A DNA stretch of 64,000 nucleotides from the IMG/VR virus record IMGVR_UViG_3300020419_000005; one strand, given 5' to 3'. Below the pieces are notes generated by a model, which ran no database searches, had not been told where the DNA came from, and saw nothing but the letters and a program-made list of their open reading frames with translations. Below, piece by piece: positions 786-63,853 of the stretch (position 1 is the stretch's first letter; each line of letters begins with the position of its first letter). This stretch comes from a virus. The translations under genes and the position numbers were made by a program.

Positions 786-912
786 AGTGGGTTGCTTAGT
801 GTTGTTATATTAATTATAGCGAATTATTCCCCCCTATGCGAACTAATTAGAATATATGTTAAATTGCTGTTATTATGACAATCACGTTACATAACTCTTG
901 AAAAAAACCGCC

Positions 913-940
913 TTGCGTGCTAACTTCCTAAGACTACAAT
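913..940 (+). promoter_or_regulatory. Plus-strand sigma70-like promoter (antisense to the early region)
   Basis: TTGCGT-16nt-TACAAT with an upstream A8 tract. Confidence 0.45.
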
Positions 941-1015
941 AACCTAAGATATTAATAGAGATATAAAATTGAAAAGTATATTTATTTTAACCTTTTTAAT
1001 TTATACTAAATCTAT

Positions 1016-1378
1016 TCATTTATACCGTAAGTTTTTAAAATGATCGTTTACTTTGTTCCCATCTATATGTCTCACTTGCCTATGATCTATATTAGTTATT
1101 TGTTCTTCTTCTATTGTTTCCGCACTTATAAAAGCACTTGCTACAAGTCTGGCAATTCTTCTTACAACTGTTTTCCCTTCTTTTCTGAGAGTTACTCTCT
1201 TGTAACCGTTTTCATTAATATGAGTCTGTAATTGTTTCCACTTTCCCCACTTAGTAGAGAATACTTCTCCATTCTCTTTTATGTAATAATCTTCATACTG
1301 TGGTAGTGCCTTATACAACTTTCCGCTATCATCAACAAAAGTTTCCGCATCAACTTTTTTAAACGTGTAAATAGTCAT
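1016..1378 (-). CDS. NUMOD4-HNH endonuclease
   Basis: YKALPQYEDYYIKENGEVFS (NUMOD4-like), GYKRVTL..RIARLVASAFI, VRHIDGNKVNDHFKNLRY (HNH_3-like). Confidence 0.8.
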   Translation of the reverse strand: MTIYTFKKVDAETFVDDSGKLYKALPQYEDYYIKENGEVFSTKWGKWKQLQTHINENGYKRVTLRKEGKTVVRRIARLVASAFISAETIEEEQITNIDHRQVRHIDGNKVNDHFKNLRYK

Positions 1379-1394
1379 TATTTTAAAGGATAAT

Positions 1395-1422
1395 AAAAAA
1401 AGGACTTTGTTAGAGTCCTTTT
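1395..1422. terminator. Bidirectional intrinsic terminator
   Basis: A-tract-GGACT-TTGTTAG-AGTCC-T-tract. Confidence 0.8.
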
Positions 1423-1453
1423 ATATAGGTATTTAATTAAAACCCTTTTATGC

Positions 1454-1993
1454 TTAGAAATTGTTGAAAATGTGATTATCCCACTCGCAATAATCATAAC
1501 TTAGGTTATTATCCCATATTTTGTTATAATCAATAGAGGACTCTATCCAAGTTGGTAAGTCTCTTGAAATATAACCACAATCTGAGATTAAGTTTTCTGT
1601 GAATTCTGCTCCACTTTCCCACTTTCCCATATATGAGTCTTCTAAGTGCATCAAGTCAGCAATATCGAAAATTGAAATAAATGCTTCAATAATCTCATCA
1701 ACTGGCGAATCATAGTAACGTAACTCTTGAGATACGTTTTCATATGTGTCGATATGCTCGATAGCGTCATCAATATCAAGTTCAAAAGTCTCTTGAAATT
1801 CTTGAATTTCGTCAAGTCTCTCTGTACCTTCTTCAAGTGCTATCTCTGTAACTTTAGAAAATTCTACTCCATAGTCAGTAGAGAATTGTAAACTACGGTC
1901 AACAATAGCACTAAGTTCAGTAATTCTTGACTTTCTTAAGTCTGCATTAATCTGATCTAGTCTAGATTGCTGAGAGTTAGATAAAGTTTGCAT
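1454..1993 (-). CDS. ArdA-like antirestriction (DNA-mimic) protein
   Basis: Very acidic; C-terminal EDSYMGKWESGAEFTENLI..DLPTWIESSIDYNKIW..LSYDY resembles the ArdA C-terminal domain. Confidence 0.7.
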   Translation of the reverse strand: MQTLSNSQQSRLDQINADLRKSRITELSAIVDRSLQFSTDYGVEFSKVTEIALEEGTERLDEIQEFQETFELDIDDAIEHIDTYENVSQELRYYDSPVDEIIEAFISIFDIADLMHLEDSYMGKWESGAEFTENLISDCGYISRDLPTWIESSIDYNKIWDNNLSYDYCEWDNHIFNNF

Positions 1994-2011
1994 TTGGGAT
2001 TTAAGTGTTGT

Positions 2012-2063
2012 TATATTAATGATAACATAAATTTTTGATTTATGTCAAGAAAAAAGAGAATTT
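2012..2063 (-). promoter_or_regulatory. Early sigma70 promoter cassette, copy 1 of a 52-bp direct repeat
   Basis: TTGACA..TGtTATCAT; 50/52 identical to 2367-2418. Confidence 0.85.
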
Positions 2064-2344
2064 TATACTTTCTTAAGGTTTACATATCCCTCATAATAAG
2101 TAATTGCAAGTTCTAAAACAATTTCAAAAACCTCTGTTGAAACATAAATTTCATTATCAAAAACGTAAGAATCTCTTTTCATTAAGACTTCTAAAACGTT
2201 ATGGGCAATATCTTCTAAATCTTTTTGAGTAAAAACAGTTGCCTTCCACCCACCAGTATAGTTAAATCTTTTATCAAGTGTTTTAACTAAATCCTCTGTT
2301 GTAACTGTGGATAGGTCAAGAGCGAAATTTTTGATTTTTGACAT
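2063..2344 (-). CDS. hypothetical early protein (start revised to MSKIK)
   Basis: The longer ORF start lies inside the promoter; AACACT leader precedes the ATG at 2344. Confidence 0.7.
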   Translation of the reverse strand: MSKIKNFALDLSTVTTEDLVKTLDKRFNYTGGWKATVFTQKDLEDIAHNVLEVLMKRDSYVFDNEIYVSTEVFEIVLELAITYYEGYVNLKKV

Positions 2345-2366
2345 TTTGGGAAAAAAGTGTTTTGTA

Positions 2367-2418
2367 TATATTAATGATAACATAAATTTTTAGTTTATGT
2401 CAAGAAAAAAGAGAATTT
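2367..2418 (-). promoter_or_regulatory. Early sigma70 promoter cassette, copy 2
   Basis: TTGACA..TGtTATCAT; 50/52 identical to 2012-2063. Confidence 0.85.
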
Positions 2419-2427
2419 AATATTCTC

Positions 2428-2676
2428 TTAATATTCTCCCCATATTCTAAGATATGCGTTAATCTCTGCTAATGTGCAAGAATATTTGTACTCAGCAGCA
2501 TTACCAGTAATAAATCGCCCAAAACTATTAGTTAATGCTATCTCAAATAATCCTTCTTTAGTGTATTCTAGGATAGATGCACCAAAGTTATTATTTGGGA
2601 AATTTATCTTACTTACTGTTGTATCTGGGATATTTCCCTTTTCTGTAGCGTAAGGATAGAATTCAAACATAATCAT
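2428..2676 (-). CDS. hypothetical early protein
   Basis: ORF track; own promoter and AACACT leader. Confidence 0.7.
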   Translation of the reverse strand: MIMFEFYPYATEKGNIPDTTVSKINFPNNNFGASILEYTKEGLFEIALTNSFGRFITGNAAEYKYSCTLAEINAYLRIWGEY

Positions 2677-2761
2677 TAAGTGTTGTTATTACTATGATAA
2701 CATAAAAATTTGATTATGTGAGACTTTTTTTAAAATGAATTGTTAAGAAATTATAAAGCAT

Positions 2762-2797
2762 AAAAAAAGGTTAGAGTTCCCACGCTCTAACCTTCTT
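2762..2797 (-). terminator. Intrinsic terminator
   Basis: AAGGUUAGAG-CGUGGGAA-CUCUAACCUU followed by a U-run. Confidence 0.85.
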
Positions 2798-2913
2798 TAA
2801 TTGAATATGTTAAGATATATTACAATCAGTTGCAATATTAACCCTAGTGTGAGTTAGGATTAATAACTGGACTTACATCAAGGGAACACTAAACCCTTAA
2901 ATGCCAGTAACGT
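2762..2913 (-). ncRNA. Candidate structured RNA (three hairpins plus terminator) in the 3' UTR of 2914-3345
   Basis: HP1 ACUGG-CAUUUAAGGG[UUUAGUGUU]CCCUUGAUG-UAAGU-CCAGU; HP2 11-bp stem with loop ACUCACAC; HP3; G-U pairs form only on the minus strand. Confidence 0.55.
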
Positions 2914-3345
2914 TTAACCTAGTGGGTAGTATCCGTTAGTGTTGAAATAGTCTATATCTGAAATAGTTAAATGCTTTTCAAATACTTTCATACCTTCATA
3001 AAATTGAATCTCAGCACCAGTTAATGTGTCTACTAAAATCCATTGCTTTTTATGTTGCTTTATATAAACTCTATCCTTAGTTAGTTCACTAAGAATTGCG
3101 TTTAATCTCTCTTTAGTTGTTTTGGTTCTAAAACCGCCATTATACAATTTAACTGACCTGTAACCAAAGTGTGTGTGGTCAATTTCTGCTATAACAGTAT
3201 CGTAAAATTTTACGTCAACAATGTTAGAACCGTCTTGTCTAGTAATAACTTCAGTATTACCTAGTCCAGTTCCCTTAGTGTTGCACTTCATCATAGCGAA
3301 AATTGCTGATGTTGTACTGGGTTTTGAAAAAGTCAAGTTGGTCAT
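2914..3345 (-). CDS. hypothetical early protein of a type common in cyanophages
   Basis: LYNGGFRTKTTKERLNAIL motif; AACACTATG leader. Confidence 0.75.
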   Translation of the reverse strand: MTNLTFSKPSTTSAIFAMMKCNTKGTGLGNTEVITRQDGSNIVDVKFYDTVIAEIDHTHFGYRSVKLYNGGFRTKTTKERLNAILSELTKDRVYIKQHKKQWILVDTLTGAEIQFYEGMKVFEKHLTISDIDYFNTNGYYPLG

Positions 3346-3416
3346 AGTGTTTTTTGCTTATGAGTCTATTCTAGCAAAGAATAGTGGTATATGTGGATTG
3401 AATTGTTAAGAGAATC

Positions 3417-3548
3417 TTAAGACTTTTTTTTCTTAGCGTCTCTAACCATTTTATTAAACTTCTTACTTTGTTTTGGACTCATACCGCAAAAATAGTTTAA
3501 TAAGTTGCCTTCATATTGATCGGCAAGTGCTATAAGGTCATTATTCAT
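3417..3548 (-). CDS. small hypothetical protein (43 aa)
   Basis: Manual: MNNDLIALADQYEGNLLNYFCG...; TAATG coupling with the upstream ORF. Confidence 0.6.
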   Translation of the reverse strand: MNNDLIALADQYEGNLLNYFCGMSPKQSKKFNKMVRDAKKKKS

Positions 3549-3682
3549 TAGTAAGTACCTCTTAATAAGTTCTTACTGTTGTTAAACTGGTCAATAAGTG
3601 CTTCAGTTTTAGCGTTTTGTTTCGCTATTTCCTTATCGGCAAATTTGATAAGTCTGTGAAGCATTTGTAAATCCTTATCCAT
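3548..3682 (-). CDS. small hypothetical protein (44 aa)
   Basis: Manual: MDKDLQMLHRLIKF...; promoter and AACACTA leader upstream. Confidence 0.6.
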   Translation of the reverse strand: MDKDLQMLHRLIKFADKEIAKQNAKTEALIDQFNNSKNLLRGTY

Positions 3683-3758
3683 AATGTTTAAATTAGTGTT
3701 GTTTGGATATATCCAATATAAGGGAAAATTAGGATAAATGCAATAGGAAAACAGATTC

Positions 3759-4001
3759 TTAACATTTTTTTAACAATTCATCTTTTCCTCTTTGAATATA
3801 TCCCTTTTTATATGATTCAACTGAAATTTCGCTTATATTCTCTATTTCTTCTTCAGTTAAACCTGATTCTTCAAAAATTAGTGCATTATCACTAAATTTT
3901 GTTAGAGTTTCAATTACTTCTTCAAAAGAAAAATCTCTATTGATAGCATTTTCGCCAAATGCAATTTCAAAAACTTCTTCAATAAATTCATTTTGTGTCA
4001 T
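3759..4001 (-). CDS. acidic hypothetical early protein
   Basis: ORF track; ATGA coupling. Confidence 0.7.
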   Translation of the reverse strand: MTQNEFIEEVFEIAFGENAINRDFSFEEVIETLTKFSDNALIFEESGLTEEEIENISEISVESYKKGYIQRGKDELLKKC

Positions 4002-4135
4002 TTGATTAAATCCTTATGTAATTTGATTAAAATTGATGAATTAACATCTATAATTTCAGTTTTCTTATCATCATTTTCAGAATAATGAAAGTTTAAACAC
4101 TCTATCATATAGAGTAACTCTTTTTGTGTAAACAT
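3998..4135 (-). CDS. small hypothetical protein (45 aa)
   Basis: Manual: MFTQKELLYMIECLNFHY...; coupled at both ends. Confidence 0.6.
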   Translation of the reverse strand: MFTQKELLYMIECLNFHYSENDDKKTEIIDVNSSILIKLHKDLIK

Positions 4136-4335
4136 TATACAATTCCCTCTTCAACTAATCCCATTATGTTGCCTGTTTCATCAACTATTTCCCCAGTTTC
4201 GTTGTCCCTGACACAACTGTATTCATAATCACAACCAAATTCAAAGGATAAATCCATTGCTTTTTGTAAATCGTCAGTAAATACCTCTGAATTGAATAAT
4301 CTGGGTGTTTCAACTGTGTATTTGAAATTGTCCAT
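4135..4335 (-). CDS. acidic hypothetical early protein
   Basis: ORF track; TTGACA promoter and AACACTAAA leader. Confidence 0.7.
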   Translation of the reverse strand: MDNFKYTVETPRLFNSEVFTDDLQKAMDLSFEFGCDYEYSCVRDNETGEIVDETGNIMGLVEEGIV

Positions 4336-4415
4336 TTGTTTTTAGTGTTTGTATGTTATGATTTATTATTGCATATAATTCTGTTATATGTCAATAAGGA
4401 AATATAAAGAGAATA

Positions 4416-4673
4416 TTAAGATAATATTCCCATTTTTGTTGCTGTTTGTTTAGTTGCTCTACGCTCTATAACAAAATCCCTTACTCTCTCTCTATCAAGA
4501 GAATCCCCACCGCCCCAAGTAACGTGAGTTCCAACTTCGCATAAATCAAGATAGTTTAAAGTTGCAAGTGCTAACTCTTCCCTAGTTAAACCGTCTATAG
4601 GGTAAAGTACATCAGGGTGACTAGGTGAATAGAATGATTCACAATAATCAAGAAATTCTTTAAAGTTGTCCAT
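4416..4673 (-). CDS. hypothetical early protein (start revised to MDNFKEF)
   Basis: AACACTATG at 4671-4679; WGGGDSLDRERVRD motif. Confidence 0.75.
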   Translation of the reverse strand: MDNFKEFLDYCESFYSPSHPDVLYPIDGLTREELALATLNYLDLCEVGTHVTWGGGDSLDRERVRDFVIERRATKQTATKMGILS

Positions 4674-4745
4674 AGTGTTTTTTGTAGATGAATCCATCAT
4701 AACATAAAATAATGAATGATGGATATATGAATTGTTAAATAAATG

Positions 4746-4991
4746 TTAAGAAAATAAATCTGAACATAATGATCTATGAATCATAAACAATTTATCTAAA
4801 TCGCTTGAATCAAAACTTATCCATTCTGAGACGTATTCCCATCTATCAAAATCTGTAACCATTCCATCAAAATCTGGTGCTGAACAAAAATCCTTATTTT
4901 CGTCTAACCAAAATGACCTTCCAAAGTGCATAGAATGAGTTACTCTCAATTCTATTGATTGATTCCACTCATATGTTGATAAAGTAGGCAT
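4746..4991 (-). CDS. hypothetical early protein
   Basis: ORF track; own cassette. Confidence 0.7.
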   Translation of the reverse strand: MPTLSTYEWNQSIELRVTHSMHFGRSFWLDENKDFCSAPDFDGMVTDFDRWEYVSEWISFDSSDLDKLFMIHRSLCSDLFS

Positions 4992-5065
4992 AGCGTTTAA
5001 AGTGTTGTTATATCCAATATATCATAAAATAATCAATATTGGATATATGAATTGTTAAGAAATAA

Positions 5066-5254
5066 TTAAAAGACGTAACAGTTATGAATAAACATTAATT
5101 CTTCATACTGTTCTGTTGAATATGCTCGTTTATCCTGTATGTTGAAATCCGACCAATCGCAACCATCTAATTTGATTTCCAAATTTTCGTATTCTGAATT
5201 CCATCGATGTAAAATTTTTGTACCATCAATTTGAGAGATAAATTTTCTTATCAT
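5066..5254 (-). CDS. hypothetical early protein
   Basis: ORF track; AGGAG upstream. Confidence 0.65.
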   Translation of the reverse strand: MIRKFISQIDGTKILHRWNSEYENLEIKLDGCDWSDFNIQDKRAYSTEQYEELMFIHNCYVF

Positions 5255-5255
5255 T

Positions 5256-5486
5256 TTAAAAAACTCCTTCTAGTGATAATTGAGTATCGGCAAATACTTC
5301 TTCTTCGATTTCGTCTATTACTTCGTTGTATTCGCCATAATCTTCAGAATAGTCATCCCAATCATAATCCCCATTTTCAAAAATTTCTCTTGCGTGTTCC
5401 TGACTTCTTGCCATTATGGTATAAGTACCATATTTTTCAAATTTTGTTGTAACGTAGAAGCGTTTTTCTGTAGTTAGTTGTTTCAT
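5256..5486 (-). CDS. acidic hypothetical early protein (start MKQLTT)
   Basis: ORF track, start trimmed to remove overlap. Confidence 0.7.
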   Translation of the reverse strand: MKQLTTEKRFYVTTKFEKYGTYTIMARSQEHAREIFENGDYDWDDYSEDYGEYNEVIDEIEEEVFADTQLSLEGVF

Positions 5487-5490
5487 ATTA

Positions 5491-5754
5491 TTAACCCTTC
5501 GCTTCCATTTTCTGTTCAAATGCTAGTCTATCCCTTTCTTCGGGTGTAGTAACCGTTTCTGGGTCATACTGAGCGTTATATGCTTCTTGAAAGTCAAATC
5601 CTAGCATACCGTCAACGATTTCCTGTAATTCGTCAATATCTGTTTCAAATTGACTAAACCAAAAATCTTGATTCATAGGATGCTTATTATCGTTTTCTTT
5701 ACGATAGTTTTCTAGGTCAGTTTGGAACTGTTCTAAAATTTTTTCAAAGTTCAT
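5491..5754 (-). CDS. acidic hypothetical early protein
   Basis: ORF track; AACACTATG leader. Confidence 0.7.
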   Translation of the reverse strand: MNFEKILEQFQTDLENYRKENDNKHPMNQDFWFSQFETDIDELQEIVDGMLGFDFQEAYNAQYDPETVTTPEERDRLAFEQKMEAKG

Positions 5755-5833
5755 AGTGTTTTATGTGTTCTTGTATCCACTATATCATAAGATAATGAAT
5801 AATGGATATATGAATTATAAAGAAATTGTTAAA

Positions 5834-6208
5834 TTACTTGTTGAATTGATCGTAAAAATCGTCACTATTCAGTAGTGGCAACTGTTCATAAGATAAACGA
5901 CATTCGGGGTCAGGTTGCATAAATGCAACTATATCGTCAGTAAAACTGGTTACGTCTCCTTCATAGGCACTATAATAAGTGTTTTCAAACTCATAATCTT
6001 CCCATTGAGCATTTTTCCAGTTTAATAAATCCCAAGAAAAAACGTCTTCTTCAACATCCGATGAGTAATTTTCATACTGTTCTCTTGTCAATACAACTTC
6101 TTCTAAGATAAATCTTCTTCTTACAAGTGTAACTAGATTGTCTGAGTCTATTTTTTCTTGACCCATTTGTTGTGCTAGTATCTGTTGATTAGGTGTTAAT
6201 TTACTCAT
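5834..6208 (-). CDS. acidic hypothetical early protein
   Basis: ORF track. Confidence 0.7.
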   Translation of the reverse strand: MSKLTPNQQILAQQMGQEKIDSDNLVTLVRRRFILEEVVLTREQYENYSSDVEEDVFSWDLLNWKNAQWEDYEFENTYYSAYEGDVTSFTDDIVAFMQPDPECRLSYEQLPLLNSDDFYDQFNK

Positions 6209-6348
6209 TGATGATAAACCTCATAATGTTGAATTGTGTCAAGTGCTTCGATTTGATGATCGTTTAACTCAAAGTCCATATCTCTGAGTATATCATACAA
6301 TTTAACCATATTGTAAATTTGATCGTTTGTTAATGGTATATTAATCAT
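6205..6348 (-). CDS. small hypothetical protein (47 aa)
   Basis: Manual: MINIPLTNDQIYNMVKLYDILRDMDFEL... Confidence 0.55.
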   Translation of the reverse strand: MINIPLTNDQIYNMVKLYDILRDMDFELNDHQIEALDTIQHYEVYHQ

Positions 6349-6562
6349 TTTCCATACCTCGCATTGAATCGTCAAATTTCCAATAGGTGTATAACCACTC
6401 GAAATTGTCTGTTAATGGTTCTTTACCATCTACAACAAATTCATCAAATAATGCTCTTGAATCCTCTGTACGGTTTTCATCAACTGCTCTGATGGTTGAT
6501 TTCATTATTGTGTCAATTAAGACATCAATAGATTTATCTAAAGTTTCGGTCATCATTGGCAT
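6341..6562 (-). CDS. hypothetical early protein
   Basis: ORF track. Confidence 0.65.
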   Translation of the reverse strand: MPMMTETLDKSIDVLIDTIMKSTIRAVDENRTEDSRALFDEFVVDGKEPLTDNFEWLYTYWKFDDSMRGMEND

Positions 6563-6720
6563 AAATCCTCAAATCTTTTTCCTACGATAGCATCTATAGA
6601 TACTGGGTCAAGATCTGACTCTTTAACGTCAAATCCTTCTTTTTTCAAATTTGCGAGTGATTCAGCAACAACCTCATCATAGAGTGTTTCTAAAATCGCT
6701 TCGTGATGTAAAACTGACAT
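6553..6720 (-). CDS. small hypothetical protein (55 aa)
   Basis: Manual: MSVLHHEAILETLYDE...KRFEDLCQ; AACACTA leader. Confidence 0.7.
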   Translation of the reverse strand: MSVLHHEAILETLYDEVVAESLANLKKEGFDVKESDLDPVSIDAIVGKRFEDLCQ

Positions 6721-6763
6721 AATAGTGTTTTGTGTCTTGATTTAATATTAAAGGATAATGTGA

Positions 6764-6997
6764 CTATTTCAAGTCTGGTAGTGCCACTTCTTTAACTGGC
6801 ATAGCATAGAGTATTTTTTCAAATGTTGCTTTGCTATCTTTTAATTTGTTCTTTTTGTACCATACTCTATACATATCAACGGTATTTGATGTATCATTAC
6901 CATTTGTTTCATTATTATAGAATGAGAAAAAGAACATCATAGAGTCAATTAAAATCTGTTGCTCTGTTTCGTTTAATGTTATGTTAAGTTGTTTCAT
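6764..6997 (-). CDS. hypothetical early protein
   Basis: ORF track. Confidence 0.65.
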   Translation of the reverse strand: MKQLNITLNETEQQILIDSMMFFFSFYNNETNGNDTSNTVDMYRVWYKKNKLKDSKATFEKILYAMPVKEVALPDLK

Positions 6998-6999
6998 AA

Positions 7000-7338
7000 T
7001 TAACAGTAAAATGAAGTTGGTCTTTTAGCAATTTTAGTCTGATCTTTTCTTTTCATTCTCAAAACCTCGAAATCTCTCTCAAGATCAAACGCTGTTTCTT
7101 TTGCTATTGGAAATTTAGTCTTACGTTGCTCTTTAGATAGTTCAAGTTCATTCTCTGTTAACCATTGATCTTTAATGACCTCTTGAACCTTCTTAAATGC
7201 CCCTACAACCGCATCTTTACCGTATCGGTCAAATGCTAGTCCTGACGTTGAATTGCTCTCGTCTAGGTCGCAATAACAGTAACCTAACTGATTTGCGATT
7301 AAACCTAGTTCTCTTGCTGTTAGATTTAATTGATACAT
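7000..7338 (-). CDS. hypothetical early protein
   Basis: ORF track; own cassette. Confidence 0.7.
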   Translation of the reverse strand: MYQLNLTARELGLIANQLGYCYCDLDESNSTSGLAFDRYGKDAVVGAFKKVQEVIKDQWLTENELELSKEQRKTKFPIAKETAFDLERDFEVLRMKRKDQTKIAKRPTSFYC

Positions 7339-7410
7339 TTTAGTTGTTTGGATTGTAATAGTTTAACATTATTATTATAATGGATATAATGACTAGAATT
7401 GTTAAGAAAA

Positions 7411-7677
7411 TCATAAGATTGCTTTTTCCTCCATTTTGTTGTCAATTAAATAAGCAATAAAATCATTCCATTCTGACCAATCTTGATCGTAAACTGAGTA
7501 ACAAATGTCTTTGATAAATTCATCATCAATTCTTTTTGTATCCCATTCTTCCCTATCGTATGTGTCAATAACAGATAATACATCTGATTTTATGTCAACA
7601 TAGTCCATAGCAAATTGCATAGGATTAGGGCAACTGTTTAACCAATTTTGGTATTCTTGTTGATTTTTATTGGTCAT
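7411..7677 (-). CDS. acidic hypothetical early protein
   Basis: ORF track; AACACTA leader. Confidence 0.7.
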   Translation of the reverse strand: MTNKNQQEYQNWLNSCPNPMQFAMDYVDIKSDVLSVIDTYDREEWDTKRIDDEFIKDICYSVYDQDWSEWNDFIAYLIDNKMEEKAIL

Positions 7678-7699
7678 TTAATTAGTGTTTAAATTGATA

Positions 7700-7790
7700 G
7701 TGGAGGAGGTTCGATTTTAAAATCTTTTCCACCGATGCTCTTAGTAGGACTAACCCACAATGTCGGGATGAGATTACCCTTGCCCTCCAC
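7700..7790 (-). ncRNA. Candidate 91-nt structured leader RNA
   Basis: Closed by a 7-bp stem GUGGAGG/CCUCCAC; internal stems CCGA/UCGG and GUGGG/CCUAC; starts 6 nt after a TGgTACATT -10 element. Confidence 0.5.
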
Positions 7791-7796
7791 ATTTAT

Positions 7797-7855
7797 AATG
7801 TACCATATCAACGGTACAATACAATAGATGATGTGACACTATGTGAATTGTCCTA
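7797..7855 (-). promoter_or_regulatory. Double-palindrome early promoter
   Basis: TGTGACAC-N8-TTGTCCTA, then TTGTAT-16-TACATT with an internal TGTACC/GGTACA dyad. Confidence 0.65.
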
Positions 7856-7975
7856 CTCTTCCCTCACTTCAAACAATTCATATGTAATCATATCAATCAG
7901 ATCTACGTCAAGATCTTCTTTAAGATAATCTCTGAGTTTCTTTGAACTCATTGCTTTAATTTCTTGATAGGTCAT
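7853..7975 (-). CDS. small hypothetical protein (40 aa)
   Basis: Manual: MTYQEIKAMSSKKLRDYLKEDLD... Confidence 0.55.
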   Translation of the reverse strand: MTYQEIKAMSSKKLRDYLKEDLDVDLIDMITYELFEVREE

Positions 7976-8187
7976 TATTTTAATTGAATGTGATAGTTAA
8001 ATTTGATAGGATAAAAACCACTACTGGCAATGATTTCTTCCCTTAAATCGTCTTCATTGTCTGCTTCATAAACACCGAGTGCTGAGTCTCTGATTGCAAT
8101 TTCTTCATCAAATGTTAGTTGGCACTCTGGGATACCATCGCCAAATTCACAAAAGTCAAACTCAATGTCTGTTACATCATACATCAT
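7975..8187 (-). CDS. acidic hypothetical protein
   Basis: ORF track. Confidence 0.7.
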   Translation of the reverse strand: MMYDVTDIEFDFCEFGDGIPECQLTFDEEIAIRDSALGVYEADNEDDLREEIIASSGFYPIKFNYHIQLK

Positions 8188-8371
8188 TAGTCATTTCCTC
8201 CATAAGTGAGTCAATTTCTTCAGCACAAAATCCGCACCTCCAACCTTCAACTTCATCGTTGTAAACTGGATAACGATTTACATATCTACCTGTTCCGAAT
8301 GAACATAGACTACCACAATCAACACATATTTCAGTTTTGAATGTATCTACTGGTTTACACATTAATTTCAT
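8177..8371 (-). CDS. small zinc-finger-like protein
   Basis: CVDC...CGFC cysteine pairs. Confidence 0.65.
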   Translation of the reverse strand: MKLMCKPVDTFKTEICVDCGSLCSFGTGRYVNRYPVYNDEVEGWRCGFCAEEIDSLMEEMTNDV

Positions 8372-8634
8372 TGTGCATACTCCTCAACTTCCTCTACTAC
8401 ATCATCAAAACCATCATCCCAATAGTTTTGGGCATCATCAAGAAATTCGACATCTGACATATTCTTATACAAGTCATCAAGGTCTGCTGTAACATAGGCA
8501 ACTAAGTCCTCTGTTGACATATTGTCAACTGCTCTCTCAACCAAAAATGATTTGAGTTCGTTAATTAGTGCGGGTGTAAAATCTTTTTTTACTTGTCTCA
8601 TTTTATTATGAGAGTAATATTCAAATTGTGTCAT
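8368..8634 (-). CDS. acidic hypothetical protein
   Basis: ORF track. Confidence 0.7.
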   Translation of the reverse strand: MTQFEYYSHNKMRQVKKDFTPALINELKSFLVERAVDNMSTEDLVAYVTADLDDLYKNMSDVEFLDDAQNYWDDGFDDVVEEVEEYAQ

Positions 8635-8636
8635 AA

Positions 8637-8867
8637 TTAGTGTGATCTGATAGTATCATACACTCTAACTGATAAAGTTTGGTCTCCAGAGGTGTCAATT
8701 TTTTCTCTGTCACACGCTTTACCAACTATTGTCCAAATTTGGTGTAGTTCTTCATCATTGAGGAATTCTGCCATATTGTAGTAAACTTCATTGCCCTCTT
8801 GATAAGGGTCATCATCAGGGAATGTATATTTCACTCCCTCTGGTTGGTATCCTCTTGGGTCTGTCAT
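8637..8867 (-). CDS. hypothetical protein
   Basis: ORF track. Confidence 0.7.
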   Translation of the reverse strand: MTDPRGYQPEGVKYTFPDDDPYQEGNEVYYNMAEFLNDEELHQIWTIVGKACDREKIDTSGDQTLSVRVYDTIRSH

Positions 8868-9097
8868 TATTTCCCCTCGTTTCTAAGTGCTTCTTCTGCA
8901 TCATCAACTAATTGTTTCTGATTTAGCATATGCTCAACTTTTTCTTGAGCAAATCCCTCTATCTTTTCATAGAACCAATCTGAGTCTGTAATGACATCAG
9001 TTTGATGATCTACTAATTCTGTGACATACGCTTTGATGACTTCGGCAAGTTTGTTTCCGAATGTCTCGTCAACGCTGTTTAACATTGGGTCAATCAT
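8867..9097 (-). CDS. hypothetical protein
   Basis: ORF track; AACACCAA leader. Confidence 0.7.
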   Translation of the reverse strand: MIDPMLNSVDETFGNKLAEVIKAYVTELVDHQTDVITDSDWFYEKIEGFAQEKVEHMLNQKQLVDDAEEALRNEGK

Positions 9098-9120
9098 TTT
9101 GGTGTTTGTTAACTATAATC

Positions 9121-9181
9121 TATTATTGCATAGCGTTATGTACTATGCAATTCCAGGTGTGACAGTATTATAACTGTCACA
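9121..9181 (-). promoter_or_regulatory. Double-palindrome early promoter
   Basis: Perfect TGTGACAG-N8-CTGTCACA (9158-9181) plus TTGCATAG-N9-CTATGCAA (9126-9150). Confidence 0.75.
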
Positions 9182-9677
9182 TAATCTGAGTACCTTGCTC
9201 TTTAATTATCCTATTACTAATAGTGTGACCTAAACGTGGGTCTTTTCTATTCTTAACTGTATTGAATTTCTTTTTCAATGCAGGGATGAGTTCATCTAAT
9301 ACTTGTTTCGCTGTCATTCGCCATACTTCAACGATTTTTCCATCTTTGTATCTGGCATAATAGTGATGATGATATTTTCCTATTTTCTCATCAACTAGAT
9401 AATTGACTTGCTTTTCCCAAGTATCTTGAACTGATATACCATTGTATGTCGCTGTCAACTTCTTACCTATGGTTGACTTATATTCTATGGGTAAGTCATA
9501 TTTGTCGTATGCGTCAGCACCAGAATAATCCTCTGCTACTGTATGACCGAGTACCCCTGCCATATGAATCTCTCTTGATCTGGCATAACTGAATGGGTCT
9601 CCCCAACCTTGCTCTTCGCAAAGTTTGTACATATTCTCAAATAATTGCTGATAGCGTTGTTCTGGTTTGTTCATCAT
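9177..9677 (-). CDS. PD-(D/E)XK restriction-endonuclease-like protein
   Basis: SREI...GADAYD..PIEYKST resembles the E..D..ExK catalytic motif. Confidence 0.5.
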   Translation of the reverse strand: MMNKPEQRYQQLFENMYKLCEEQGWGDPFSYARSREIHMAGVLGHTVAEDYSGADAYDKYDLPIEYKSTIGKKLTATYNGISVQDTWEKQVNYLVDEKIGKYHHHYYARYKDGKIVEVWRMTAKQVLDELIPALKKKFNTVKNRKDPRLGHTISNRIIKEQGTQIM

Positions 9678-9832
9678 AGTAAGGTGTCCTCTGATAATAG
9701 TGTTCCCCACTCAGTATAGACGTATGGGTACTGTTTTGCAAGTTTTTTAAAGTGATGGAAATCATCTAGTGATAATTCTTCATTTGTTTCGTGGTATTTT
9801 TGCCACCTAGTTTGCACTTCATTGAATGTCAT
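9674..9832 (-). CDS. small hypothetical protein (52 aa)
   Basis: Manual: MTFNEVQTRWQKYHE...; ATGA coupling at both ends. Confidence 0.6.
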   Translation of the reverse strand: MTFNEVQTRWQKYHETNEELSLDDFHHFKKLAKQYPYVYTEWGTLLSEDTLL

Positions 9833-10305
9833 ACTAATACCTCACCTTTTTCAATTTGATCTAACGCTCTACGAGTGCAGGGTGTTGCTTCATAGGATAG
9901 TATCTGGTCATAGTTCTCATCATATTGATGCTTTAACTCATACATCGCCCAGAATCCTTGACCTCTACCGTTTGGAACAAATATGTATGAATACTCTTGC
10001 CAACAATCAATCATAAAGAAATCTTTTCGTTTCTTACTGATAATTGGTTCTTCATTGTCTCCACCATAGTATGATGGTTTTGGGTCAGCGATAGGTGTAA
10101 ACTCTCCTGTTTCTACATTAAACTTACTGTCAGACCAACAGTTTGACATATTGCCACCGTCAATAAGTTTGTTTACTGATTCTTCAGTATTATAGTGAGT
10201 GAGTAATTTAACTCCTAGTCCTTCGGGGTATCCATCAAAGTGATGATATACAGATTTTATTGAACCATCTTCTAATTCAATTCCTATTCTTGATCTAGTT
10301 GACAT
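9829..10305 (-). CDS. conserved phage hypothetical protein
   Basis: MSTRSRIG...SVYHHFDGYPEGLG...EYSYIF, a widespread phage early family. Confidence 0.8.
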   Translation of the reverse strand: MSTRSRIGIELEDGSIKSVYHHFDGYPEGLGVKLLTHYNTEESVNKLIDGGNMSNCWSDSKFNVETGEFTPIADPKPSYYGGDNEEPIISKKRKDFFMIDCWQEYSYIFVPNGRGQGFWAMYELKHQYDENYDQILSYEATPCTRRALDQIEKGEVLV

Positions 10306-10329
10306 AATTGGTGTTTGTTAACTGAATCC

Positions 10330-10390
10330 ATTATAGACACAAAAAAACCCCCTGTCTAGGGGGCAATGTGACACTTACCAATGTGTCCCA
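10330..10390 (-). promoter_or_regulatory. Double-palindrome early promoter with embedded terminator
   Basis: TGTGACAC-N8-GTGTCCCA (10367-10390); CCCCC-N6-GGGGG-T7 hairpin; TATAAT. Confidence 0.7.
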
Positions 10391-10776
10391 AGATGCGTCA
10401 TTGTGTTCTTAAATGTGGTAAGAGTGGAACTATTAGTAATATCCGTTGTACTGACTCTTGCTGATGCTTCATCTTTACCTATGAGTCCGTCTTTGGTTAC
10501 AAATCCCCATACAGTAACTAATGCACCTCTATCTGAGGGTGCTGTTGCAACGATTTCTAGGTCGTCTCCTGCTGATCTACTAGCAAATGACCAAGTTACC
10601 TTTTCGTTATCTCCTGTTACTAAATCCTTTTTTGATTGTAATTTGTAATCAGAGAGACTTCCTGTACCTGCTGATGTCATTCTAGCATTGATGTTTGCTA
10701 ATCTGTATGCTTTCGCTTTCGCAACCAATTCAGTACACACGCTGTTAGTTGCAGTTATAGTTGCTGATGTTGCCAT
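10375..10776 (-). CDS. hypothetical, probably late/virion protein
   Basis: A/T/S-rich; TATAAATA late promoter 28 nt upstream; own terminator. Confidence 0.65.
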   Translation of the reverse strand: MATSATITATNSVCTELVAKAKAYRLANINARMTSAGTGSLSDYKLQSKKDLVTGDNEKVTWSFASRSAGDDLEIVATAPSDRGALVTVWGFVTKDGLIGKDEASARVSTTDITNSSTLTTFKNTMTHLGTHW

Positions 10777-10804
10777 TTTTACTATGTACTTTGTTTCGTA
10801 ATTC

Positions 10805-10812
10805 TATTTATA
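10805..10812 (-). promoter_or_regulatory. T4-type late promoter TATAAATA
   Basis: Exact match overlapping the helicase stop codon. Confidence 0.7.
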
Positions 10813-12079
10813 CCACTAATGACTCAGGAGGTAGTCCATTGATGAATATAGAATCTACAACTGTTTGTAATCTTCTGATTATATGCTTACCATAGTTTGC
10901 GTGGCAAGGTACGGTAACATATCCTGTTTTCTTCCTGTAAAAACTCAATGCACCCGCTTCAATTTTGCCCTCTCTAATGTCCTTAGAATCGTCTGTATCC
11001 ATTCTAATTACTCTACCTATAGTTTGTGCCATAGACACCACATCTAACTGTCTCAGGAGGATACAATGGGTCAATCCTGACACGTTGATACCTTCACTCA
11101 AGATACTGTAATGGAATATAATAAACTTCTTGTTTTTGTCTCTACCATATTGAGTGAGAGTATCGAAAAACTTTTCTCTGTTTACTTTTTGTCTATTAAC
11201 ATATGCACCAAACTTAGATGTAATATGCAAGAACTCAAATCCACGTTTCTCAAGTTGATATATCAAATCGGTTTGAGACATCATTGCTCCCAACATTCTG
11301 CTAGACGGTACACTAACAAGAACCTTATGTGCATCATCACTATCAAGTGTGTCCAGTATATCAGTAACAGTTTGACTATCAAGGTCAAATGCCTGTTTCC
11401 TGTCTCTATTCTCTTTAGTATGAAATGGAACTATGGTAGGAGGAATGATCGAACCATTGTCAATAAGTTCTTTTGCTTCAATATTACAAATAATATTTCC
11501 GTATATAGTTCCGTTGTTCATTCCCCTAGTATTGCGATAACTAATACGAGGAGTAGCAGTAAAAAAATATGTGGATTTAGAATGACGAGAAATAGACTCA
11601 GTAGGAGGACTAAAAGACCTCGTAACAGAGTTATGTGCTTCGTCAAAATAAGCACCATCAATACTAATATCAGAATCGACAACACGTTTCAAAGAGTGAT
11701 AAGTTGTAAAAATAATTAGATGTTTGGTACTATTGTCAACAAAATTCTTGATTTTATCTGACTTAGTTGTGCTGTAGTAATGTGTTTCGCCACTATGAAC
11801 GTGCATCACATCAATACCAACATTATAGTTACCATCAAGATTCTGCTCTAGAAACTCTGAGCATAACTGGTTCGCAAGTAATATGCGTGGTGCAACAACA
11901 ATAAAAGTTTTAGGATACCAATGTAGAGTTCCGCCTTCTGTTGTTTTTAATCGTCTTGTAAGATCGTGTATCATACACATAGTCTTACCACCACCAGTAG
12001 GTACAATGACCTGACCTTTGGAGTGGTTCTTCATAATATCGACAATACGTTTTTGGTGTGGTCGTAATGTAATCATCAA
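10808..12079 (-). CDS. SF2 DEAH-box helicase (type III restriction res-like)
   Basis: LRPHQ Q-motif, PTGGGKT, FDEAH, TATP, ILSEGINV, QTIGRVIR. Confidence 0.9.
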   Translation of the reverse strand: MMITLRPHQKRIVDIMKNHSKGQVIVPTGGGKTMCMIHDLTRRLKTTEGGTLHWYPKTFIVVAPRILLANQLCSEFLEQNLDGNYNVGIDVMHVHSGETHYYSTTKSDKIKNFVDNSTKHLIIFTTYHSLKRVVDSDISIDGAYFDEAHNSVTRSFSPPTESISRHSKSTYFFTATPRISYRNTRGMNNGTIYGNIICNIEAKELIDNGSIIPPTIVPFHTKENRDRKQAFDLDSQTVTDILDTLDSDDAHKVLVSVPSSRMLGAMMSQTDLIYQLEKRGFEFLHITSKFGAYVNRQKVNREKFFDTLTQYGRDKNKKFIIFHYSILSEGINVSGLTHCILLRQLDVVSMAQTIGRVIRMDTDDSKDIREGKIEAGALSFYRKKTGYVTVPCHANYGKHIIRRLQTVVDSIFINGLPPESLVV

Positions 12080-12096
12080 AGTGTTTTAATTCACTC

Positions 12097-53555: not shown

Positions 53556-53791
53556 TGACGAAAACATCTAGCGATTATAAGCAGACCAAATGATTGAAAG
53601 TAATTGATTGTTATCAAACCAAATAGAGTAGGCATAACAAAGTTCCAAGCAAACATTAGAACGAGAGGAGTTAAAAATACTGTTCCGATAAATTGTCCAA
53701 CATCCTCTGATGTAGGTTTAAACTTTTCTTCCTTTGGAGGTTCCTCTGGAGTCTTAGGTTCCTGTATTTTATCTACAGTATAGATTGTCAT
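53552..53791 (-). CDS. membrane protein
   Basis: LMFAWNFVMPTLFGL.TINYFQ. Confidence 0.7.
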   Translation of the reverse strand: MTIYTVDKIQEPKTPEEPPKEEKFKPTSEDVGQFIGTVFLTPLVLMFAWNFVMPTLFGLITINYFQSFGLLIIARCFRQ

Positions 53792-54069
53792 CCTCTTCTT
53801 TTTCTTTTGGTTTTCTTGTCTTTGTCTGCCTCCTGTGGATTTTTCCATAATTTAGGGTTTACAATTCCTTGTGACTGTTTGAACCATTTAAAGTCCTTCT
53901 TATACTTATCATAATAATGGTTAAACATCTCCACTTGTGACATTGGTATGGCAATATCATAACATTCCTCACCATTCTCAATGTAATGGACAAGATATGC
54001 TGTGTACGGTAATGTTTTGTCTTCAGCGTCTGCGACACTGCACTTTTGTTTTAGGACGTTCAAGTTCAA
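53788..54069 (-). CDS. conserved cyanophage hypothetical protein
   Basis: LPYTAYLV.Y..YDI..F..YYDKYK..Q..G..NPKLW. Confidence 0.8.
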   Translation of the reverse strand: MNLNVLKQKCSVADAEDKTLPYTAYLVHYIENGEECYDIAIPMSQVEMFNHYYDKYKKDFKWFKQSQGIVNPKLWKNPQEADKDKKTKRKRRG

Positions 54070-54500
54070 CTCCGATTACCCCATACTATAGTGGGGAATG
54101 CTGTTTCGACAACTGCTTTAGTAATTCTATAGCGTTTGCCAAGTTGTTTATCCTTTACTAGACAAAGAACCTTTGCTTCATCTTCGTGTAACCCTTCTAA
54201 CATTTGGATAAACATATTCTCTTTCTTCATAGAAGGAAGGTTGTCTGCTCCACCTTTAATAAAGTAATAGAACTTACGTGCTTCTTTTTCAAGGAGTGTA
54301 TGTTCTGTACCCATAGGTGCAGGGTTAGGTCTGTAAGGTACATCACCATCTGGTATTGCTGAGACAACACTGTCATCATAGTTCCAGATGAATAGAGAAC
54401 GAAGTGCTTGACTATTGTTCTCTTGAAGGACTTTCACCTTCTCTGATTTTGTTTTGGCATTGTGTGCCTTTTGCAAAATTTCTGCGATAGTAAGTTTCAT
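54066..54500 (-). CDS. conserved T4-like hypothetical protein
   Basis: EILQK..K..L..P.G.VPY..E.MFIQ.LEGLH..EA. Confidence 0.8.
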   Translation of the reverse strand: MKLTIAEILQKAHNAKTKSEKVKVLQENNSQALRSLFIWNYDDSVVSAIPDGDVPYRPNPAPMGTEHTLLEKEARKFYYFIKGGADNLPSMKKENMFIQMLEGLHEDEAKVLCLVKDKQLGKRYRITKAVVETAFPTIVWGNRS

Positions 54501-56251: not shown

Positions 56252-56868
56252 TAGTTGAGATGTACGTTGAATGCGATTGAATAACGAGGAAGATCTGTGT
56301 TGTTCTTTTCCGTAGCGTGTTCTAACCACGATGGAAATAGTATAACAGATTCTGGAGTTGGATTGAAGTAAATACCTTCCTCAGTTCCGAACATACACAT
56401 CTTAGCATACATATTCGGATTGTAAAATAGTATTCCTCCCATCTCAGGTATAGTCTTATGATAATACACACCAGATATTTGATGACCTGCGTGTGTATGT
56501 CTTTGTTGTGACTTACCTTTACCTACTACATTAATCCAAGATTGTGAGATCGTCCACGATCCCTTCAATGGTTCTATGTATGCTGATGCACTATCTGGAA
56601 CAGGTAATTTTTGTGAACTAACATATTTCTCTATTGCTTTACCTAAAAAACTTTCAAGGTTTGGCATTGGATGTTTCTTAAACATCTGTAATAAATGTTG
56701 CTTTGAATGTGTACCGTGTAAGGTTTCTTGCAAAGCATAAGGAGACAGATATGAACTGTCAGACCAGTCACCTGTCTCCTCTAAGTATTTGATTGTGTTG
56801 TCTATCTCATCTACTATAGTGGGGTCACTATGTTCTGATGGAAATATTTCAATGGGAAAAAGTTGCAT
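56251..56868 (-). CDS. 2OG-Fe(II) oxygenase (TIGR02466-like)
   Basis: SWIN..HTH..ISGVYY..ILFPSWLEH..RYSIAFN. Confidence 0.85.
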   Translation of the reverse strand: MQLFPIEIFPSEHSDPTIVDEIDNTIKYLEETGDWSDSSYLSPYALQETLHGTHSKQHLLQMFKKHPMPNLESFLGKAIEKYVSSQKLPVPDSASAYIEPLKGSWTISQSWINVVGKGKSQQRHTHAGHQISGVYYHKTIPEMGGILFYNPNMYAKMCMFGTEEGIYFNPTPESVILFPSWLEHATEKNNTDLPRYSIAFNVHLN

Positions 56869-57061
56869 CTTGTAGTTCTTCGACTCTGTAGTGTCTCCAA
56901 AGGGATTGATCTAAACCAAAGATCTCTACCTCGGCACCGCTAGGTGCATCAAATATGTATGTCTCGAATGGCATTATTACTTTCTCTATCCAAAAGTTTT
57001 CTGCCATACATTTTAGTATTACCATCCTATCAGATTCATTTCTATAGTTGTAACTATTCAC
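56849..57061 (-). CDS. DUF1830-like protein
   Basis: YRN.S.RMVILKC..IEKV..P.E...F.AP..A..EI. Confidence 0.7.
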   Translation of the reverse strand: MNSYNYRNESDRMVILKCMAENFWIEKVIMPFETYIFDAPSGAEVEIFGLDQSLWRHYRVEELQDATFSH

Positions 57062-63663: not shown

Positions 63664-63670
63664 AAATTTA

Positions 63671-63853
63671 GAGGGAGGTTGGGTTCCTGTGTACCAACAA
63701 AGAAGGGGCATTACTACAGAGTAAAAACCTTCTTGCCTGAGACCCGATTGGTAAATCGATTCTGCTTTCGCAGCAGCACCACCTGTGTCTCATCACCTTA
63801 ACTAGCGTTTGCCAGTAAGTTTATTCAGTCACTCCCGATGTCGCGTCCGACTC
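63671..63853 (-). ncRNA. manA: manA RNA motif (large structured cyanophage RNA)
   Basis: GGGAGUGACUGAAUAAACUUACUGGC..CUAGUUAAGGUGAUGAGACACAGGUGGUGCUGC..GUCUCA..CCAACCUCCC with nested stems and a GAAA tetraloop; family assigned from memory. Confidence 0.7.

Follow-up and report, generated by a model that had tools for sequence, protein, structure and literature searches.

We know of no described mechanism by which cyanomyoviruses switch off their early genes, and these viruses are not known to carry the T4 factors MotA and AsiA. Among phage RNAs with related features, the c4 antisense RNA of phages P1 and P7 (Rfam family C4) carries exposed hairpin loops that block translation by pairing with its target at the leader and ribosome-binding region. 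This RNA is part of the same transcription unit as its target, is excised by RNase P, and regulates a single operon; it has two loops, with a longer complementarity than that of the element described below. A second well-described class is formed by the RNase III sites of T7, i.e., hairpins with an internal loop located between early genes, where cleavage occurs within the internal loop of a hairpin of ~20 bp, and where a protective 3′ hairpin is left on the upstream message. T4-type phages also contain promoter-early stem-loop (PeSL) cassettes, in which a stem-loop or terminator is followed by a sigma-70-type early promoter, and which are found between small ORFs in hyperplastic regions (PMC2839356, PMC4122927). 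The RNA elements known from cyanophages are few in number, and comprise manA, wcaG, glnA, PhotoRC-II, CfrI, and abiF (PMC9964418).

In this study, we describe a structured 3′ UTR from the early region of a T4-like cyanomyovirus. The most solid new result of this work is that part of this 3′ UTR belongs to an RNA motif, supported by covariation and not present in Rfam, which we name motif X; both this name and the covariance model R1 were defined in this analysis.

A structured 3′ UTR in the early region

The stretch of DNA that we analyzed (the window, 64,000 nt) derives from a T4-like cyanomyovirus. In GenBank, it matches only two phages, Synechococcus phage metaG-MbCM1 and Prochlorococcus phage P-TIM68, at 80–84% identity and in one small gene only. 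The early region occupies the minus strand from position 1 to about 12,100, and is made up of small-ORF cassettes, each preceded by a sigma-70-like promoter, often with an extended −10 box. The element under study is the 3′ UTR of an early gene of the Kyano_Gp96 family, the stop codon of which is located at 2914–2916 (minus strand). The features of this locus are as follows.

2914–3345, minus strand: Kyano_Gp96-family early gene, 143 aa (Pfam PF23790, E = 1.3e-12)
2866–2908, minus strand: motif X, present as a single copy in the window (model R1, 53.4 bits, E = 1e-11)
2904–2908 with 2866–2870, minus strand: P1 helix of motif X, ACUGG/CCAGU, seen in the fold and in the covariation of the family
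2901–2903 and 2871–2877, minus strand: invariant core of motif X, CAU and UGUAAGU, from the alignment of the family
2878–2900, minus strand: HP1, which is the P2 helix of motif X; stem 2894–2900/2878–2884, UUAAGGG/CCCUUGA; 9-nt loop UUUAGUGUU at 2885–2893
2836–2865, minus strand: HP2; stem 2855–2865/2836–2846, 11–13 bp with a conserved U·G pair; loop ACUCACAC at 2847–2854
2799–2835, minus strand: variable linker (earlier HP3)
2763–2798, minus strand: intrinsic terminator, GGUUAGAG...CUCUAACC followed by U7 (14 pairs plus T run)
2679–2748, minus strand: next early cassette, with the upstream repeat TCTTAACAATTCA at 2736–2748, an extended −10 box TGtTATCAT at 2694–2702, and the leader AACACU at 2679–2684

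The minus strand of 2763–2913 is predicted to fold into HP1, HP2, and the terminator, with a weak third hairpin (HP3) in the minimum free energy (MFE) fold. The MFE of the 162-nt RNA is −43.8 kcal/mol, compared to −29.3 ± 3.8 kcal/mol for shuffles (z = −3.85). A first-pass annotation of this DNA had proposed three hairpins plus a terminator; of these, HP1, HP2, and the terminator stand, being retained in relatives, but HP3 occurs only in the MFE fold of the window. The same annotation had proposed that G-U pairs fix the strand, and this is borne out, because a conserved U·G pair in the HP2 stem, kept in relatives from the same clade, assigns the RNA to the minus strand. The segment from 2798 to 2763 (minus strand) combines a GC-containing hairpin with a T7 tail on the same strand as the upstream gene, as found in intrinsic (Rho-independent) terminators. 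In the structure ensemble, the HP1 and HP2 loops are each unpaired to at least 95%, and they are complementary to each other (UAGUGU in HP1 and ACACUA in HP2; duplex −5.6 kcal/mol).

The start codon of the cassette downstream of the element is located at 2676, or at 2670, with 2670 aligning with the start found in relatives. The terminator at 2763–2798 is followed by the extended −10 box at 2694–2702, and such promoter cassettes are repeated among the small early ORFs, i.e., the layout is of the PeSL type. Exact copies of the repeat TCTTAACAATTCA are present at 2736–2748, 3399–3411, 5048–5060, and 58497–58509 (all minus strand), several of them preceding early promoters; the last is distant from the early copies, at 58.5 kb, and copies with one or two mismatches were also identified by our scan, e.g., at 4728 and 7395. 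Elsewhere in the window, the early gene at 1454–1993 (minus strand) shows a weak match to the ArdA antirestriction family (PF07275, E = 8e-5, under the Pfam cut-off), and the syntenic region of P-TIM68 is annotated as an anti-restriction protein. A full-length manA RNA, a known cyanophage cis-regulatory RNA, is located at 63668–63852 (minus strand; Rfam RF01745, 178 bits).

Conservation among close relatives

Close relatives of this locus are present in four IMG/VR contigs and 14 metagenome contigs, all with the same Gp96 gene, 3′ UTR, and downstream cassette. The set used for the clade, in which overlapping loci are counted, comprises 22 elements or contigs and eight distinct sequences. P1, HP1, HP2, and the terminator are retained across these 22 contigs with compensatory changes. 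For example, four versions of the HP1 stem are found (UUAAGGG/CCCUUGA, AAAAGU/ACUUUU, AAAAGG/CCUUUU, and UAUAGG/CCUAUA), and the loop is identical in all eight distinct sequences. The HP2 stem shows one compensatory change within the clade (C-G to A-U), with its U·G pair and its loop unchanged, and the terminator is invariant. The region of HP3 is replaced through indels by unrelated sequence, and RNAalifold finds no consensus helix there. The flanking genes are syntenic across the clade, with no junction at the element. This analysis demonstrated that the stretch is a real, conserved, strand-specific, and modular structured 3′ UTR RNA.

HP2 is confined to the clade of the window, being missing from all other motif X loci. 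A search with the two-loop pattern TTAGTGTT...CTCACACTA retrieved the four close relatives from IMG/VR again and otherwise chance matches only, and neither the element nor the L085-type block gave a meaningful BLAST match among 50,697 phage records.

Motif X, an uncatalogued RNA motif with a variable tip

We searched IMG/VR with the pattern ACTGGCAT-N15-45-GTAAGTCCAGT, which specifies the outer helix and its neighbors only and leaves HP1 unspecified. In addition to the close relatives, this search returned about 35 other viral contigs, which share the frame ACUGG-CAU-(hairpin)-(N)UGUAAGU-CCAGU, with tips that are unrelated in sequence and in length. A second scan, using the helix AGTGG/CCACT, identified 11 more stretches, some of which are scored by R1 and some of which are chance matches. 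In an alignment of 26 instances, motif X consists of a P1 helix (NNUGG/CCANN), an invariant core (UGGCAU...GUAAGUCCA), and a P2 helix, of which HP1 is the example found in the window. P1 occurs as ACUGG/CCAGU, AGUGG/CCACU, or CGUGG/CCACG, and as UUGG/CCAA in Prochlorococcus phage P-SSM2.

Both helices are supported by covariation: 88% of the P1 and P2 cells in the 26 sequences are paired, compared to 74% in shuffles and 21–48% in slid controls, 8 of 11 pairs are altered on both sides, and none of 500 shuffles reached the observed values. Across the 546 kb of loci that were fetched, model R1 gave 49 matches at E ≤ 1e-3, mostly from uncultured marine phages and with several outside the training set, and it rejects chance matches to the pattern. 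The element of the window is a member of this family, with covarying helices around the core and the R1 score listed above. Searches of Rfam 15 identified no family at motif X, using the window element and eleven other motif X loci at a permissive threshold; in the window, the best match within 2600–3000 scored 19.5 bits, against a gathering threshold of 80. Motif X is a previously uncatalogued RNA motif, with HP1 being its variable tip.

One way to draw the core is as an asymmetric internal loop, CAU/UGUAAGU; another pairs CAU with NUG and leaves a 5-nt UAAGU bulge. We compared it to kink-turns, loop E, tetraloop receptors, S8 sites, RNase P, and a start-stop (NUG-UAA) arrangement, none of which provided a convincing fit. 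The tips range from 13 to 80 nt, and outside the clade of the window the tip is wholly different in both sequence and length. In unrelated phages, short tips are as a rule rich in U and G, e.g., UUUUGUGAUAUUU, UUUCGUGGUUGCUU, and CGGGUGUUUG. Entire tip modules are common to phages with different P1 helices. The apical insert GGUGGCUAGACC..AGGUCGCAUACGC recurs in loci L059, L060, and L064 and in L125, and the insert GCAAUUCCUA..UAAAUGGAUACUCU in L062 and L096 and in P-SSM2 (L164, 1037–1092); the presence of the same inserts in unrelated phages with different P1 helices suggests that motif X or its tips are exchanged. A family-wide strand test on P2 counted 8 G·U cells and 10 A·C cells, i.e., no strand signal.

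Distribution and position of motif X

Motif X is present in two cultured Prochlorococcus phages, with three copies in P-TIM68 (record region 53,562–54,140), each located directly 3′ of the stop codon of an early gene, and one copy in P-SSM2 (record 56,636–56,691). It was not found in Syn9, P-HM2, S-PM2, P-SSM4, or metaG-MbCM1. The remaining carriers are unrelated tailed phages. In all loci, motif X is oriented sense to its flanking genes. Its position varies: in about 25 uncultured phages it is found about 25 nt 5′ of a start codon, and not ahead of a terminator, so a single common 3′-end function is not obvious. One group of loci (L059–L099) shares a conserved block of about 110 nt with variable genes on either side, and one contig (L102) contains three tandem copies of motif X behind a methyltransferase gene. 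Tandem copies in L102 (11076–11301), L125, L126, and L128 occur amid repeated AAGGACG words and tRNA T-arm-like fragments. Pairing in cis between the tip and the downstream leader in L059-type phages gave a mean z of only −0.55.

We also surveyed genes and genomes that might be associated with the motif. A link to one upstream gene family was rejected, with a Gp96-family gene preceding motif X in the clade of the window and in the divergent contig L109, a DUF7717 gene in P-TIM68, and an unrelated gene in P-SSM2. In the picocyanobacterial family, the sole match is in a Prochlorococcus single-cell genome contig (L106; QCBP01000027, 6.6 kb), where motif X follows a small ORF, with 0 of 150 other genomes containing it; this contig also carries a serine-recombinase-like gene and a tRNA, and could represent a mobile element, or DNA of phage origin, rather than chromosome. 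Matches in Erysipelotrichaceae were rejected as chance, as they hardly form P2 and as P1 is disrupted in a paralogue by an uncompensated change. In P-SSM2, the motif is located in a 366-nt non-coding gap (L164, 968–1333; record 56567–56932), where it is followed by a long GC-richer region that is closed by ATTGAGAGA...TCTCTCAAT and a T run; this gap has no Rfam match, and may contain another structured RNA.

AACACU leaders and their complementarity to the HP1 loop

The feature that drew attention to this element was the proposal that the HP1 loop is antisense to a leader motif shared by the early genes. We confirm both the location of this loop and its sequence, UUUAGUGUU, which is the exact complement of AACACUAAA. 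All 13 of the early cassettes said to carry AACACU ahead of their first gene were located, and the leader of the gene starting at 4335 does match the loop over all 9 nt. In the window as a whole AACACT is not enriched (57 copies, 60 expected), and the motif is strongly positional: on the minus strand, 13 early genes that come first in their cassette carry it 0–12 nt ahead of the start codon.

785, 1993, 2344, 2676, 3345, 3682, 4335, 4673, 4991, 5754, 6720, 7677, 12076, minus strand: starts of the cassette-first genes with an AACACU leader
798, 2004, 2356, 2679, 3346, 3695, 4344, 4674, 5001, 5755, 6724, 7684, 12080 (span 798–12085): positions of the 13 leaders, as AGTGTT on the plus strand

Since the motif lies downstream of the −10 box, it falls within the first 3–20 nt of the transcript. 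The leaders of cassette-first genes are CA-rich and do not contain a Shine-Dalgarno sequence (consensus about ACAAAACACU), whereas genes internal to cassettes have a GGAG-like Shine-Dalgarno sequence and are missing the AACACU motif. Predicted duplexes between the HP1 loop and these leaders range from −5.2 to −8.6 kcal/mol, compared to a mean of −3.2 kcal/mol for internal start regions. Only 1.3% of loop permutations pair equally well with the leaders, and when 6-mers are drawn at random from the same strand, just 0.05% equal AGUGUU in the number of leaders that contain their complement. The loop, at least 95% unpaired and complementary to the leaders beyond chance, is an accessible seed of the kind found in trans-acting antisense sRNAs. 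The pairing consists of only 6–9 A/U-rich base pairs, and the loop has no counterpart to the CA-rich flank that is conserved in the leaders, with the complementarity ending at the 6-mer plus A-U pairs. An extension of this pairing from GGG in the stem to CCC in some leaders, as suggested by the first-pass annotation, does not hold, as relatives have AAAAGU, AAAAGG, or UAUAGG at this position and GGG is therefore not conserved. As short tips are U/G-rich and leaders CA-rich, a chance match of 6 nt is also less surprising than uniform statistics imply.

AACACU leaders are present in the relatives of the window and, among the loci examined, are specific to its clade; an AACACU leader and an AGUGUU loop occur together in this clade and in no other locus examined. 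Both are fixed within this single clade, and their co-occurrence counts as one phylogenetic event. Two loci outside the clade bear on this association. P-TIM68, the sole further phage that combines motif X with a clearly dominant leader motif, has leaders of the AAGGA type (5 of 6), and 0 of its 3 motif X tips are antisense to this motif; L109 has AACACU in two leaders and contains no AGUGUU tip. The early cassettes of P-TIM68 also contain a repeated block of ~60 nt, (A)ACACTAAATGTTAGTTACCTCTAAATTGA...TAATGTAATCAAGGAAT, before each start codon (L057, 640–1360 and 2180–2800), two copies of which begin AACAC(T/C)ACTAAA.

A candidate cis-acting 3′-end module and its alternatives

Based on the sequence and its conservation, we tentatively favor a reading in which the element is a cis-acting 3′-end, processing, or stability module built on motif X, to which we give somewhat less than an even chance. 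In this model, the structured 3′ UTR would close the transcript of the Gp96-family early gene, with the stop codon followed by motif X, the clade-specific HP2, the variable linker, and the intrinsic terminator. The invariant core would be recognized by a protein or nuclease, or would form a self-contained fold, and would in this way define, process, or protect the 3′ ends of early cassette transcripts; the terminator would insulate the Gp96 cassette from the next promoter. In keeping with this model, the consensus promoter scan gave nothing sigma-70-like ahead of the element on the minus strand, and a strong terminator follows it. We infer the role in stability or processing from the position of the element, directly after a stop codon, and the recognition factor is likewise a predicted component. 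The HP1 and HP2 loops would most likely contact each other through UAGUGU and ACACUA, and such a contact could instead account for why the two loops, both invariant in the clade, are conserved. The complementarity of the HP1 loop to the leaders would then most likely be incidental, a consequence of motif X tips that are rich in GU and of leaders that are CA-rich and lack a Shine-Dalgarno sequence. The conserved, and presumably functional, part of motif X lies beside P1, and HP1 is its variable tip, which weakens the case for the element existing to display AGUGUU and points to a different core function.

The original proposal was that of an sRNA regulon, where the HP1 loop, either within the mRNA or after processing, pairs in trans with AACACU(AAA) in ~13 early leaders. 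Pairing within the ribosome footprint would tune or shut off translation, and motif X would be a protein-binding or stabilizing scaffold that presents a lineage-specific antisense loop. The parts of this proposal that stand are a conserved, strand-specific RNA, a loop that is invariant and almost fully unpaired, and an exact, non-random complementarity to targets without a Shine-Dalgarno sequence, in which the motif is located 0–12 nt from the AUG. The constancy of the loop over four compensated stem variants, together with leaders restricted to the same clade, fits a function in trans just as well as one in cis. However, a consensus scan found no sigma-70-like promoter upstream of the element on the minus strand, and the RNA would therefore be made alongside its proposed targets unless it is processed and accumulates. 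The duplexes are weak, with pairing over 6–9 bp that leaves the CA-rich flank unmatched, the co-occurrence is a single event, U/G-rich tips raise the odds of matching CA-rich leaders in general, and neither P-TIM68, with its dominant leader and three copies of motif X, nor L109 shows the expected antisense tip. We consider this regulon unlikely. The more specific form, in which motif X is a protein-binding handle with an exchangeable apical guide, UUUAGUGUU in this case, aimed at the AACACU leaders of ~13 early cassettes, is in our view quite unlikely. HP2 could instead act as a decoy, its leader-like CACACUA (AACACUA in the leaders) soaking up a factor that reads the leader, e.g., a RegA-type repressor or ribosomal protein S1. 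ACACUA is indeed common to HP2 and the leaders, the HP2 loop does not vary and is fully exposed, and the motif X tip of L089 contains the leader-like CUCUCAC in sense orientation; but the similarity extends over only 6 nt, one copy would face 13 or more leaders, the candidate factor is hypothetical, and HP2 is missing from all other motif X loci, which makes titration a remote prospect.

The distribution of motif X can also be read at the level of DNA, as a folded single-strand recombination or cassette-boundary site that promotes small-gene shuffling in hyperplastic regions, attC-like (integron) in architecture or PeSL-like in effect. Copies located at cassette boundaries right after stop codons, the ~110-nt block between variable genes in the L059–L099 group, tip modules swapped among phage groups, and a family-wide count of G·U and A·C cells without strand signal are all consistent with such a site. 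However, motif X is always sense to the neighboring genes, the clade of the window keeps U·G pairs and syntenic flanks that show no junction there, the inverted repeat spans just 5 bp, and no recombinase is consistently nearby; we regard a DNA-level site as very unlikely. Finally, motif X with its ~15 invariant core nucleotides could be a self-contained functional RNA, i.e., a small self-cleaving ribozyme or a ligand-binding aptamer. The combination of an invariant core, covarying helices, and swappable tips resembles small ribozymes and aptamers, and motif X lies between genes in phages and also occurs in tandem, but Rfam 15 gave no match to a ribozyme or riboswitch family, and the neighboring genes are unrelated, which argues against a riboswitch; this is the most remote of the explanations that we weighed.

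Whichever of these readings applies, the core of motif X is invariant across unrelated marine phages that include the cultured P-TIM68 and P-SSM2, and it can therefore be tested at the bench. We also document a clade that combines AACACU leaders lacking a Shine-Dalgarno sequence with a complementary loop that does not vary. Were this loop to act on the leaders, it would be part of a phage-encoded RNA that controls its own early regulon, and if the tip is a guide, one RNA derived from a 3′ UTR would feed back on the whole of this regulon. Should the loop not act on the leaders, as under the favored 3′-end module, motif X is still a new candidate 3′-end, processing, or protein-binding signal in ocean viruses.

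Comparison with known systems

HP2 was compared to Yfr1, an sRNA of marine cyanobacteria, as the HP2 loop contains CUCACAC, which overlaps the Yfr1 core ACUCCUCACAC. The first-pass annotation had likened HP2 to both the leader motif and Yfr1, and of these two likenesses the first is retained, through the shared ACACUA, and the second is not: no Rfam match was found at E ≤ 10 in 2600–3000, the similarity is limited to CUCACAC and does not include the CCU part, and the Yfr1 core is unpaired between two hairpins, whereas the HP2 motif is located within a hairpin loop. We therefore do not class the element as a member of Yfr1.

The likeness to c4 consists of an exposed loop in a phage RNA that is complementary to leaders of the same phage and made together with the candidate targets. 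The two differ in that the element of the window offers a single match of 6–9 nt to 13 putative targets, and has no Rfam match. With the RNase III sites of T7, motif X shares a conserved hairpin, predicted to contain an internal loop, between early genes; its helices, ~12–15 bp in total in the short forms, are short for RNase III. Like manA, wcaG, glnA, PhotoRC-II, CfrI, and abiF, it is a conserved structured RNA in T4-like cyanophages, and it is distinct both from these elements (PMC9964418) and from the families in Rfam 15. The early region of the window shows the same terminator-promoter layout as PeSL cassettes. PeSLs, however, are simple hairpins defined per phage pair, whereas motif X, single-copy in the window, is characterized by an invariant internal core that is found across unrelated phages.
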